DNA from: a virus
Taxonomy: Duplodnaviria; Heunggongvirae; Uroviricota; Caudoviricetes
Direction: 5' to 3' (one strand)
Virus record (IMG/VR): IMGVR_UViG_3300044294_000233
DNA length: 10,678 bases
Below, in pieces: positions 2,679-5,362 of this stretch. The position numbers and the translations under genes are program-made. The notes beneath the pieces were generated by a model. The model searched no databases, had not been told where the DNA came from, and saw only the letters and a list, made by a program, of their open reading frames with translations. Numbering within the stretch: position 1 is the first letter of the stretch; every line of letters starts with the position of its first letter.

Positions 2679-2916
2679 TTAACGCCCCCAGAGTTCAGAT
2701 ATTCTATCGTGAAAACCCTGGAGAATTGCGTTATGCTGGTCGGCGGGATTTTTTCGCGGCTCTTGTTTCCAAAAGGTTCGACCCTGACGCCGGGGGCCGA
2801 AAAACCTGGGCGGGATTTTTTTGTGACACGCTAATAAGAAAACAAGGCCGTAGAGGTATGGGGACCGCCCCCGAACGGGAACCATCGTCAGACTTTTTGC
2901 TTTTGAATTTCGACAT
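2679..2916 (-). other. Ambiguous AT-rich segment with two overlapping ORFs (2731-2916 and 2679-2885); coding status unclear
   Basis: Neither ORF shows the codon bias of the region. The 2679 stop abuts the HNH start (TAAATG). GGCGGGATTTTTT occurs twice. Confidence 0.25.
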
Positions 2917-2959
2917 TCATTAAAATGTTACAGCGTCCTGTTCATAGCGTTGTACCTTT

Positions 2960-2995
2960 GTATCCACCACACACATAGTAGTGTGTGGTGGATAC
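2960..2995. repeat. Perfect 15-bp inverted repeat without a U-tract
   Basis: GTATCCACCACACAC (2960-2974), loop ATAGTA, GTGTGTGGTGGATAC (2981-2995). Lies 13 nt downstream of the 3009 stop codon. Confidence 0.85.
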
Positions 2996-3008
2996 TATCC
3001 AACTGTTG

Positions 3009-3350
3009 TCATTGCATCAGCAATGCTAACTGGCGCATGTATCGCTCGCTCTGTAGTACGACCTTGAGTGATAGTAGCTGCTGCTTGGTGAGTGGTCGGC
3101 CGCTGTCCTTCTGATCCCTGAGCGAGTGTAGGTAGCGTGTGTCGTGGTCCTCGATGCCGAAAGGACCGGGCAGTTCGGTAGCGAGATCCTCGGCGTTGCT
3201 GTCAGCCAGCACAAGCGTGTCGAACATGCGTTCCACTTCGTCTAGCTGCGAGGCTTTGAGCTTGGGCAGTCGCTGCGCTAGGTCGGCGGTTCGTGCGGCG
3301 AGGTGGGGAAGGTTGGTCTTCCCGTTCGCCTTAGCTTCGTTGATGTCCAT
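3009..3350 (-). CDS. Hypothetical protein (113 aa) starting MDINEAKAN
   Basis: SD AAGGAG and the first nine codons lie inside the 127-bp repeat. The body uses more A/T-ending codons (CTA, TTA, GTA) than neighbouring genes. Confidence 0.75.
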   Translation of the reverse strand: MDINEAKANGKTNLPHLAARTADLAQRLPKLKASQLDEVERMFDTLVLADSNAEDLATELPGPFGIEDHDTRYLHSLRDQKDSGRPLTKQQLLSLKVVLQSERYMRQLALLMQ

Positions 3351-3449
3351 TGCGATCTCCTTGCACAGCCCTAGAAGGGCGTTGAAACGAAAGAAGCCCG
3401 GAAGGGCGATGGGTCGCCGATCCGGGCTTGGAAGCGATCCTATGCGATT
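3323..3449. repeat. 127-bp exact direct repeat, copy 1
   Basis: Identical base for base to 4457-4583 by manual comparison. Confidence 0.95.
3385..3429 (-). terminator. Intrinsic terminator-like hairpin inside repeat copy 1
   Basis: Minus strand: AAGCCCGGA-TC-GGCGA-CCCA-TCGCC-CT-TCCGGGCTT followed by CTTTCGTTT. Confidence 0.65.
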
Positions 3450-3968
3450 TCAGACGGTAGCGGGTTGGAACAGGGCGAGGAAGTTCTGGTAGTCGCCGTT
3501 GTCCGGGTCGGTCAGCTTGGTCGTCATGCGGTCGGTGTCGTTGGTCAGGGCGATGGCGTCTTGCCAGAGGTCGTTGTTGTTCTCGCTGGTCACGGTGGCG
3601 ATGCGGATGTTCTCGCCGTGCTTCGCGAGGCGAACCCGGTACTTGTAGGTGTTCACCCGGCTGATTTCGATCTCCGGGGCGAGCGCCTTCCGAGCGAGTT
3701 CGGCCGTCAGCATCCCGGTGGCGGCGTAGTAGTTGATGTCCGTCTCACGCCACGGTTCGAGTTCGCAGGTATCGACGTTGCGGCCGTGGATCGGGCAGGC
3801 GTCGTTCTGGCCGTTGCACCGATGGTCCGGGCATTCCATCTTGTCGCCCGTCTTCGGGTCGATGTAGTGGAGTTTGGCGAGCTTGCGCCGGCCGTGTTCG
3901 ATGAAGCCGATGACGACCGCGTAGCGGCTGCTGGCCGGGATGCTGACGATGTCGTTGAGGCTGACCAT
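3450..3968 (-). CDS. Hypothetical protein (172 aa) with a possible Zn-binding CPDHRC...CPIH cluster
   Basis: Start reassigned to ATG 3968 (SD AAGGTG; MVSLNDIVSIP). The TGA abuts repeat copy 1 with no gap. Confidence 0.8.
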   Translation of the reverse strand: MVSLNDIVSIPASSRYAVVIGFIEHGRRKLAKLHYIDPKTGDKMECPDHRCNGQNDACPIHGRNVDTCELEPWRETDINYYAATGMLTAELARKALAPEIEISRVNTYKYRVRLAKHGENIRIATVTSENNNDLWQDAIALTNDTDRMTTKLTDPDNGDYQNFLALFQPATV

Positions 3969-3987
3969 GATCACCTTCGGTTGAGAA

Positions 3988-4055
3988 GTAGAGGCGGGGC
4001 GGCGGGCGTACCTGCCGTTACCCCGACAGACCCTGCTGCCGGACCCCGCCTCTAC
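3988..4055. repeat. 12-bp perfect inverted repeat enclosing a 44-nt GC-rich segment in the leader of the 172-aa gene
   Basis: GTAGAGGCGGGG (3988-3999) and CCCCGCCTCTAC (4044-4055). One arm includes most of the TGTAG box. Confidence 0.8.
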
Positions 4056-4087
4056 ACGTCGTTCGTCTTCTTGTCTCCAAAATTGTG
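4052..4087 (-). promoter_or_regulatory. Recurrent element, non-palindromic-spacer type
   Basis: Minus strand: CACAATTTTGGAGAC-AAGAAGACGAACGACG(16)-TGTAG. Confidence 0.7.
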
Positions 4088-4106
4088 CGGTGAATCCGCC
4101 GCACAA
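4079..4106 (-). terminator. Intrinsic terminator overlapping the upstream box of the element
   Basis: Minus strand: TTGTGCGG-CGGATTCA-CCGCACAA-TTTT. Confidence 0.6.
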
Positions 4107-4172
4107 CGCAAGGTTGGTTCCGTGGTCAGGCACCCCGTTCGGCGTGTCCACGGCTACGCTGAAGCCGCTGCG

Positions 4173-4196
4173 TCATATGAAGCCGGAAGTGTACAT
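4173..4196 (-). CDS. Mini-ORF MYTSGFI (7 aa)
   Basis: ATG TAC ACT TCC GGC TTC ATA TGA, with SD GGAG 6 nt upstream. Confidence 0.35.
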   Translation of the reverse strand: MYTSGFI

Positions 4197-4274
4197 GTTC
4201 TGCTCCGTGCGGGTGGCGAGCCGGTTTAGCGACTGCGGCTCAGGTCGTGCTGGTCACGTCAGCATGGGCCGGGG

Positions 4275-4304
4275 CTATATGAAGCCTGTCGGGTATTCTC
4301 GCAT
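4275..4304 (-). CDS. Mini-ORF MREYPTGFI (9 aa)
   Basis: ATG CGA GAA TAC CCG ACA GGC TTC ATA TAG, with SD GAGGAG 10 nt upstream. Confidence 0.35.
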   Translation of the reverse strand: MREYPTGFI

Positions 4305-4361
4305 CGGGGGCTATCTCCTCGCGCGGAAGTAGCTCGCAGCTACTCCTGCGCGGTTGTTGTT

Positions 4362-4484
4362 TCACTTGCTGTCGGTGACTTCGGCTTTGACCACTTCGAC
4401 TTTCATCACGCCGCTGCCGAGCGTGTCGTTGATCGCCTCATCGACCGCTTCGCCCGCGTTCGCCTTAGCTTCGTTGATGTCCAT
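4362..4484 (-). CDS. Small hypothetical protein (40 aa) starting MDINEAKAN
   Basis: Same SD and first nine codons as 3009-3350, supplied by repeat copy 2, then AGEAVDEAINDTLGSGVMKVEVVKAEVTDSK. Confidence 0.7.
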   Translation of the reverse strand: MDINEAKANAGEAVDEAINDTLGSGVMKVEVVKAEVTDSK

Positions 4485-4583
4485 TGCGATCTCCTTGCAC
4501 AGCCCTAGAAGGGCGTTGAAACGAAAGAAGCCCGGAAGGGCGATGGGTCGCCGATCCGGGCTTGGAAGCGATCCTATGCGATT
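4457..4583. repeat. 127-bp exact direct repeat, copy 2
   Basis: Identical to 3323-3449; offset 1134 bp. Confidence 0.95.
4519..4563 (-). terminator. Intrinsic terminator-like hairpin inside repeat copy 2
   Basis: Same hairpin and U-rich tail as 3385-3429. Confidence 0.65.
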
Positions 4584-4631
4584 GTCGTGATCGGCCACAG
4601 CTTCGTTGCCGGCCTTGACGACCTCGAAGTT

Positions 4632-4814
4632 CTAGATGTTCTCTTCGAGCCACTTGAGGAAGTCCGCGCCGTTGCCCCACTGGGCTTCGATCATCGTGTA
4701 GACACGCACGCCCATGCGGAACGCTCGCGGCGTGTCCAACTCACGCAGCAAGTTCGCCATCAGGCTGTACTCGCCGTCCATCCAAGCCAGCGCGAGCTGT
4801 TCTGCCATCAGCAT
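4632..4814 (-). CDS. Hypothetical protein (60 aa)
   Basis: SD GGAGGT before ATG 4814 (MLMAEQLALAW...WLEENI), ending in TAG. Confidence 0.75.
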   Translation of the reverse strand: MLMAEQLALAWMDGEYSLMANLLRELDTPRAFRMGVRVYTMIEAQWGNGADFLKWLEENI

Positions 4815-4836
4815 GACAACCTCCAATTCGGGTGGG

Positions 4837-4882
4837 GGAGACAACCCTAAACGCTCGGTTTAGGGTTGTCTCCGGTTTTGCG
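4837..4882 (-). promoter_or_regulatory. Recurrent element, hairpin type, 16-bp perfect stem
   Basis: Plus strand: GGAGACAACCCTAAAC-GCTCG-GTTTAGGGTTGTCTCC-GGTTTTGCG. Starts 0 nt after the TGA of 4883-5362. Confidence 0.85.
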
Positions 4883-5362
4883 TCAGTTTTTGTTGAGGTC
4901 AAAGTTCCGTTCGATGGTGTAGCGGTCGTGACCGAACGGCTCGAACGCGGCCTTCAGGCGAGCTTCGGCAGCCTTGAACCCTTCGATGGCAGCCGCGAGT
5001 TCGTCAATGGAGGCTTGGTTGCTGAGGACGGCGGCGCGGGCGATGTTCCGCTTGACGGCCGCGTCGAGGTGAGCCGGGTTGTACTCCTCGAAGAACTTCG
5101 CGTCAACGACGATGTTCTTGAGGGCGTAGGCGATGATCATGTCCGTTTTCTGGTCGCCGTTCTGGAAGCTGACGTAGGTCATGCTGGCGCGGGCGTGCGT
5201 CGTGACCTCGAAGCCGAGCGTTTCCGACATCTTCTTGAGGTAGGGCGCGGTCAGCCGCTTGCCGTCGTTGGCCTTGAAGTAGTCGAGAACGGCCTGCGGG
5301 CGTTCGGTGTGTTCGGTCGCGTAGAACACCGTGTTGAAGATCGTTTCGGAGGTCGTCGGCAT
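4883..5362 (-). CDS. Hypothetical protein (159 aa)
   Basis: SD GGAG and strong codon bias. Bounded by an element on each side. Confidence 0.85.
   Translation of the reverse strand: MPTTSETIFNTVFYATEHTERPQAVLDYFKANDGKRLTAPYLKKMSETLGFEVTTHARASMTYVSFQNGDQKTDMIIAYALKNIVVDAKFFEEYNPAHLDAAVKRNIARAAVLSNQASIDELAAAIEGFKAAEARLKAAFEPFGHDRYTIERNFDLNKN

Follow-up and report, generated by a model that had tools for sequence, protein, structure and literature searches.

A 127-nt gene-junction segment present twice as direct repeats in a huge tailed-phage fragment, and a contig carrying the deletion between them

The DNA considered here (the window) is a stretch of 10,678 nt from a virus of the Caudoviricetes, taken from IMG/VR record IMGVR_UViG_3300044294_000233. 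It contains, on its minus strand, two identical copies of a 127-nt unit that consists of the spacer between a gene for a 172-amino-acid (aa) protein and a gene for a 113-aa protein, together with the first codons of the latter. The reading preferred here, to which a probability of about 0.65 is given, is that this native junction was copied once to a site upstream, and that the resulting direct repeats then let the module between them recombine out. The reading draws on the arrangement of the locus in related lineages, in which only one of the two copies has a counterpart, and on a contig from another sample in which the two copies are joined into one.

The repeat and its native copy

The window corresponds to bases 45-10722, reverse strand, of a 125,807-bp record, for which the completeness estimated by CheckV is about 25%. 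Genes for a T4-type large terminase, a T4-type portal, and proteins of the baseplate and tail are present in the record, which is a fragment of a huge tailed phage. The region of the 172-aa and 113-aa genes lies on the minus strand of the window at the end of an array of small genes, each of which is preceded by a repeated two-box/hairpin element. The features of this region that concern the repeat are as follows.

3450-3968, minus: 172-aa gene, with a Cys/His-rich N-terminal domain; homologues of 64-78% identity at the same position in relatives
3009-3350, minus: 113-aa gene, predicted all-helical, the apparent native owner of the MDINEAKAN start
3323-3449, minus: repeat copy 1, apparently native; comprises the whole 99-nt spacer that separates the 172-aa from the 113-aa gene, and 28 nt of coding sequence at the start of the latter
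4457-4583, minus: repeat copy 2, apparently derived and ectopic; 100% identical to copy 1, with no counterpart at this position in any relative
3394-3429 and 4528-4563, minus: 36-nt hairpin, predicted at -26 kcal/mol, followed by a T-rich tail
4518-4527, minus: T-rich tail of copy 2
3368-3380 and 4502-4514, minus: small GCCCT/AGGGC hairpin (5 bp)
3357-3362 and 4491-4496, minus: Shine-Dalgarno (SD) sequence AAGGAG
4482-4484, minus: ATG of copy 2, followed by 25 nt of the unit

The two copies are identical at 127 of 127 positions and are spaced 1134 nt apart. The unit is found twice in the whole record and is the sole long exact dispersed repeat there, and a search of the record with blastn-short for further or near copies returned only chance matches of 9-19 nt. 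The 300-nt flanks of the two copies, on both sides, are no more similar to each other than shuffled sequence; therefore, both boundaries of the repeat are sharp, and a test for residual similarity past the repeat ends detected none. On the minus strand, the first base of copy 1 directly follows the TGA of the 172-aa gene. This TGA is in frame with the 113-aa start, which is taken as chance in GC-rich DNA.

The 36-nt hairpin folds into an outer stem of 9 bp and an inner stem of 5 bp, and is a predicted terminator-like structure. The 3' end of the unit consists of an ATG, eight codons and one further nucleotide, encoding MDINEAKAN, beyond which the 113-aa frame and the 40-aa frame opened by copy 2 are unrelated. 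The pentamer ATCGC occurs four times per copy against 0.17 expected, but relatives retain only one of these four. Scanning 2700-5000 with the consensus of a sigma-70-like promoter (-35, N17, -10) found none on either strand, and the phage's own two-box element is absent from the unit. The exact repeat, its hairpins, its SD sequence, the shared MDINEAKAN, the divergence of the two open reading frames (ORFs) and the position of copy 1 after the TGA had all been described in an earlier reading of the sequence (the original prediction), and all are confirmed in the sequence.

Two candidate relationships of the unit were rejected. That MDINEAKAN is an N-terminal address tag common to many proteins was dropped, because it occurs only twice, on identical DNA; the record contains no third MDINEAKAN start. 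A 72% match (23 of 32 nt, in frame) between 4594-4625 and the start region of the unit was dropped as well, because chance repeats of such size and identity are frequent in the window.

Relatives of the locus were reached through exact proteins and their homologues, which led to contigs L013, L014/L023 and L017, described here as four related lineages. Their 172-aa proteins are 78% (L013), 69% (L014 and L023) and 64% (L017) identical to that of the window. L013, L014/L023 and L017 have a contiguous, syntenic series of the 172-aa leader, the 172-aa gene itself, a unit-like spacer and a gene for a protein of 112-117 aa, and a 159-aa gene upstream and a 160-aa gene further downstream are also common to these relatives. 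The identity of copy 1 to the equivalent spacer is 84% in L013, 74% in L014 and 67% in L017. The large hairpin is kept in the four lineages, with an invariant outer stem and an inner stem that shows one compensatory pair, and the second stem and the SD sequence are mostly kept in the relatives. The N-termini of the 113-aa family also align, with MDIDQAKANG... in L013 and M-x4-A-x2-N-x2-TNLP throughout. Within the stretches read, no second copy of the unit is present in the relatives' loci.

The homologue of the unit at the 172/113 junction in the relatives, together with the aligned N-termini, points to copy 1 as the native copy and to MDINEAKAN as belonging to the 113-aa gene. Copy 2, by the same comparison, is evidently a one-off ectopic copy in the present lineage. 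Since the DNA between the two copies is syntenic in the relatives, it is ancestral at this place, and only the upstream 127-nt copy is new.

The original prediction had also considered the unit as a portable expression cassette that captures new reading frames, and had proposed a search for more copies and for other MDINEAKAN genes. The search yielded none beyond the two in the record, and in pattern scans of viral and metagenome contigs the conserved hairpin was found at the 172/113 junction only, which speaks against such a cassette. The metagenome pattern scan added one further locus, in the context already known. Exact and degenerate patterns for the hairpin and the leader core found nothing in viral contigs; searches of viral contigs with the 172-aa and 113-aa proteins confirmed no related locus, and blastn with 2900-4900 gave no match among GenBank phages.

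The variable slot and the origin of the second copy

Copy 2 is situated in a slot whose content varies by lineage, and which is bounded by the last two-box element on one side and by the 172-aa leader on the other. The slot contains nothing in L013, a 155-aa gene and a 42-aa ORF in L014, and a 154-aa gene and a 37-aa ORF in L017. In the present phage, a 60-aa gene is followed by a 48-nt piece, by copy 2 and by a 92-nt piece. The small slot ORFs are mutually unrelated, and yet each of them terminates at one aligned TGA, where the leader begins. The parts of the slot in the window, other than copy 2, are listed below.

4632-4814, minus: 60-aa ORFan gene, evidently a second copy, with its native locus elsewhere
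4584-4631, minus: 48-nt spacer between the stop codon of the 60-aa gene and copy 2
4362-4484, minus: 40-aa chimeric ORF, made of 9 codons of the 113-aa gene and 31 lineage-specific codons

Homologues of the 60-aa protein (77-97% identity) are found in a different gene context in contigs L024-L027, from the samples behind L013 and L015 and from one JGI sample of the present phage. The match to one of these, L025, is 97.5% and is confined to 4833-4633; it begins in the 3' part of the upstream element and goes no further than the stop codon. The 60-aa gene in the slot thus has the marks of a transplanted copy, and is read as one. Upstream of the native 60-aa copy, repeats of a CATAGCGTTGTACC motif are seen within a low-GC stretch that has few ORFs.

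The TGA of the 40-aa ORF stands at the conserved start of the leader. Its frame is open upstream to a GTG, which would give 78 aa, and further to the TAG of the 60-aa gene, and gene callers report the ORF as 78 aa on some contigs. Between 4484 and 4634 (minus), the 60-aa TAG, the whole unit and the 40-aa ORF fall in one open frame, which is taken as chance in GC-rich DNA. No homologue of the 40-aa ORF was found by search, and no interrupted ancestral ORF comes to light when the unit is taken out and the 48-nt spacer is joined directly to the 40-aa tail. The 40-aa ORF is probably a by-product of the paste.

The following course of events is proposed. The 127-nt unit of the 172/113 junction would have been pasted 1134 bp upstream, into the variable slot. 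The patchwork of the slot, to judge from its pattern, may stem from one or a few illegitimate or template-switching repair events, and not from a mobile element. The paste would have supplied the 92-nt stretch with a ribosome site and a start codon, which would give rise to the 40-aa chimeric ORF. The identical copies would now be direct repeats that bracket the 172-aa gene with its leader, and the general homologous recombination of the phage could loop this module out, presumably as a 1134-bp circle.

An alternative to this incidental origin is that the duplication was selected for regulation, copy 2 being kept for termination after the 60-aa gene and for restoring translation to the conserved TGA. 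This is doubtful, though it is the strongest of the alternatives. It would account for the fact that the small ORFs of L014 and L017 end at the same aligned TGA, and that the chimera is in the only frame that reaches this TGA; moreover, the duplication is present on at least two distinguishable haplotypes (the window and L011). In contrast, L013 has no small ORF at the slot, an in-frame fusion is expected by chance in one case out of three, and the existence of a deletion allele shows the arrangement to be unstable. A single lineage, furthermore, allows no measure of divergence or conservation of copy 2.

Recombination products and the length of the repeat

It had been foreseen in the original prediction that recombination between the copies would remove the 40-aa ORF, the mini-ORF region and the 172-aa gene, leaving an intact junction, and a search for the 1134-bp deletion allele had been suggested. 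This prediction is supported: the exact junction is present in one contig of another sample (L020; sample 3300045431; 1210 bp), in which window positions 4882-4457 are joined to 3449-2539. The order in this contig is the 60-aa gene, the 48-nt spacer, a single unit and the 113-aa gene. It differs from the window by one private single-nucleotide polymorphism, at 4859; therefore, it represents a distinguishable haplotype.

Other contigs exhibit further exchange near the repeat. L011 (sample 3300045421), which contains copy 2 and the start of copy 1, has an upstream region of the L025 type, followed by window sequence from 4797 on. L022 and L021 end exactly one 127-mer past the last differing base (contig ends 4671 and 4629/4755). 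These contigs are read from their sequences as products of exchange between the 60-aa gene in the slot and its other copy, with crossovers that fall within the gene. They imply that recombination on homologies of 100-200 nt is common enough in this population to be assembled.

No match to a tyrosine or serine recombinase (PF00589, PF00239) was found in the 126-kb record, which covers 25% of the genome. General homologous recombination is the simplest agent of the deletion. A duplication of the att type is likewise not indicated, as the record has no recombinase match and the DNA between the repeats is present in the relatives.

Integration of a 1134-bp circle, the origin put forward in the original prediction, would produce the same arrangement in the opposite direction: a circle made of the unit, the tail of the 40-aa ORF, and the 172-aa gene with its leader would have entered, through the unit, a genome with the order 60-aa gene, unit, 113-aa gene. 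A genome of this recipient form is seen in L020, contigs of 1261 bp (see below) are compatible with a circle, and the mini-circles formed by PeSL (promoter-early stem-loop) units in T4-like phages show that such a route exists (PMC2839356). The inter-repeat genes are nevertheless ancestral: all four related lineages have the leader, the 172-aa gene, the spacer and the 113-aa gene in one uninterrupted block, so that the L020 form, in which ancestral genes are missing, is the derived state. Moreover, the circle would already need the junction of the unit with the 40-aa tail, and the source of the second copy would be left unexplained; integration can only reverse the deletion. It is therefore considered improbable as the origin of the repeat.

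No greater credit is given to the related idea that the leader and the 172-aa gene form a naturally cycling cassette, which leaves as a 1134-bp circle and re-enters. If this were true, carriers and non-carriers of the 172-aa gene would form a standing mix in the population, and the circles would carry the 172-aa gene, its leader and a terminator into co-infecting relatives that share the 172/113 spacer.

Several points weigh against copying of the native junction followed by deletion. The length of the repeat equals the k of the assembler (127), and the exact match is an unexplained coincidence. A 127-mer is one vertex of the assembly graph, so that the 1134-bp module is a self-loop, and the number of passes through it per molecule is chosen by the assembler. 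L020 is short, at 1210 bp, and is possibly a mis-threaded path. The 1261-bp contigs begin exactly at the vertex, as an unresolved loop gives, and are no proof of free circles. Searches of the record, the relatives and viral contigs revealed no source for either the 48-nt or the 92-nt piece. No pre-duplication allele of the present lineage was found, and the mechanism of the paste is only inferred. Finally, the record represents no more than 25% of the genome, and each relative was read over just 4-6 kb on either side.

The value of k is seen in two contigs of sample 3300045005, L010 (starting at 4755) and L021 (ending at 4629), which overlap by exactly 127 nt. Since the repeat is as long as k, contigs alone do not fix the copy number. 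L010 and L018, both of sample 3300045005, are 100% identical to the window through both copies. L012 is 1261 bp long (1134 + 127), with the 127-mer at both ends, and a contig of 1261 bp is present in two samples. L019, a k = 31 Logan contig found in five runs, has its first base 2 nt ahead of the 113-aa ATG. This start lies k - 1 = 30 nt inside the 3' end of copy 1, as expected for a branch at base 3323; the break thus indicates that the reads contain two continuations at exactly the 3' boundary base.

That the two copies never stand on one molecule, the contig being an artefact of a k = 127 graph walk that mixes strains or takes in a separate small circle, is the least probable of the explanations and is regarded as very unlikely: the repeat is exactly k long, the loop was left unplaced in two samples and the samples contain several recombinant haplotypes, but each (k + 1)-mer of the contig is derived from reads, so that all four 127-mer junctions exist in the samples, the loop interior in L012 forms a single edge without branches, flanked by the 127-mer at each end, the same walk is taken in at least three further contigs or samples, the k = 31 assembler stops exactly at the 3' boundary in five runs, and, by reasoning, a graph cannot lengthen a shorter repeat to k.

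Neighbouring genes and comparison with known systems

The module between the repeats consists mainly of the 172-aa gene and its leader, of which the parts are listed below.

3969-4361, minus: leader of the 172-aa gene, conserved; its 393 nt fill the interval between the 40-aa stop codon and the 172-aa start
4275-4304 and 4173-4196, minus: twin mini-ORFs inside the leader
about 4052-4085: two-box element in the leader

Across four lineages, the alignment of the leader is tighter than that of the flanking genes. The mini-ORF peptides MREYP(T/S)GFI and MYTSGFI are kept through synonymous codon changes (Ser TCC to AGT or AGC, Arg CGA to AGA, and the stop TGA to TAA). RNAalifold predicts several hairpins in the leader, with compensatory change at 14 predicted pairs. 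A search of the whole window against Rfam gave nothing credible, and the leader matches no family there. It resembles a regulatory leader that is translated, of a type not yet described.

The N-terminal domain of the 172-aa protein comprises about 95 residues with conserved C46, C58 and H61. A profile of the family finds 67 cluster representatives at E <= 0.001, and the domain often stands alone, in many proteins of about 100 aa. Those cluster representatives that were tested against Pfam belong to no family there. The 172-aa protein is placed, by this profile, in an uncharacterised family. The AlphaFold model of the 113-aa protein has a predicted local distance difference test (pLDDT) score of 94, with residues 3-30 forming helix 1. 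Comparison of the 172-aa and 113-aa proteins with Pfam, PHROGs, the ESM Atlas, AlphaFold models and PDB folds suggested no function for either, and in Pfam, in PHROGs and among solved structures neither protein had a match.

Downstream of the 113-aa gene, an AT-rich island (2679-3008, 48% GC) precedes a 145-aa gene (2241-2678, minus) that matches phage endonucleases of the HNH/endonuclease VII type (phrog_3322, E = 1e-23). The 145-aa gene has no tblastn match in the loci of three relatives, and the genes of about 145 aa found at its position in relatives (148 aa in L014, 143 aa in L013) are not homologous to it. It probably encodes a free-standing homing endonuclease. Such an enzyme could supply the breaks for the copying event, and nothing ties the gene to the event. 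Elsewhere in the record, an intein splicing domain is found inside the T4-type portal gene (G000:C1:98732-101290; L007:18732-20000).

The arrangement invites comparison with three known systems. As in integron cassettes, a small gene module is flanked by a repeat with a hairpin and could be released in circular form. In contrast to these, the present repeats are simply identical over 127 nt, coding sequence included, whereas attC sites are imperfect palindromes; no integrase was found in the 126 kb, and the present module is ancestral at its site in the relatives.

Templated patch insertion, by template switching or illegitimate recombination during break repair, is comparable in that short pieces copied from near and far (the 127-nt unit, the 60-aa gene) are combined at one site with others for which no source was found, and in that a lineage-specific HNH endonuclease gene lies 0.7 kb downstream. 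It differs in that no junction microhomology is definable here and there is no pre-event allele, so that the comparison is a reading of the pattern.

The third system, and the closest known process, is that of the PeSL units of T4-type phages, which consist of a promoter, a stem-loop, an SD sequence and a start codon, and which flank ORFans (Arbiol et al. 2010, PMC2839356; Comeau et al. 2014, PMC4122927). Recombination between PeSL units deletes ORFans, and the resulting mini-circles have been detected by inverse polymerase chain reaction (PMC2839356; PMC4122927). The present unit is similarly short and intergenic, with a stem-loop terminator (predicted here), an SD sequence and the start codon of the next gene. 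It likewise has small variable genes around it and belongs to a phage whose packaging genes are T4-like. In both cases direct repeats flank a module; PeSL modules are lost by recombination between the repeats, as the present one appears to be, and a general recombination system suffices for this. Unlike PeSL, however, the present unit has no sigma-70-like promoter in it or near it; it exists in two copies and not as a dispersed family, with no other partners in the viral and metagenome pattern scans; in relatives it is confined to one conserved gene junction; and it extends 28 nt into coding sequence, making a chimeric ORF. The unit appears to work like a PeSL pair but is not PeSL.

By analogy, the better counterpart of PeSL in this phage group is the set of two-box/hairpin elements (4837-4894 and others). 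Neighbouring genes with these elements share an SD and start region, as in L017, in which 2883-2966 and 3418-3499 are 89% identical over 84 nt. The elements (window 4833-4894 and related) also coincide with mosaic boundaries between haplotypes.

The present case is an ordinary, known kind of phage genome shuffling, seen in progress, and nothing in it should surprise phage geneticists. What it offers is two shuffling steps at base-pair resolution in an uncultured huge phage, namely an ectopic copy of a gene junction giving a chimeric ORF and direct repeats giving a deletion, and, unusually, natural samples show both the substrate of the deletion and its product. For users of metagenomes, it is an example of a repeat of length k, in which a contig alone does not give the copy number, and the loop, the path that skips it and the break at k = 31 can be read as evidence. 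The PeSL picture is extended in that the repeat that drives an exchange need not belong to a promoter family: a one-off copy of a segment with a terminator, a ribosome site and a start codon suffices.

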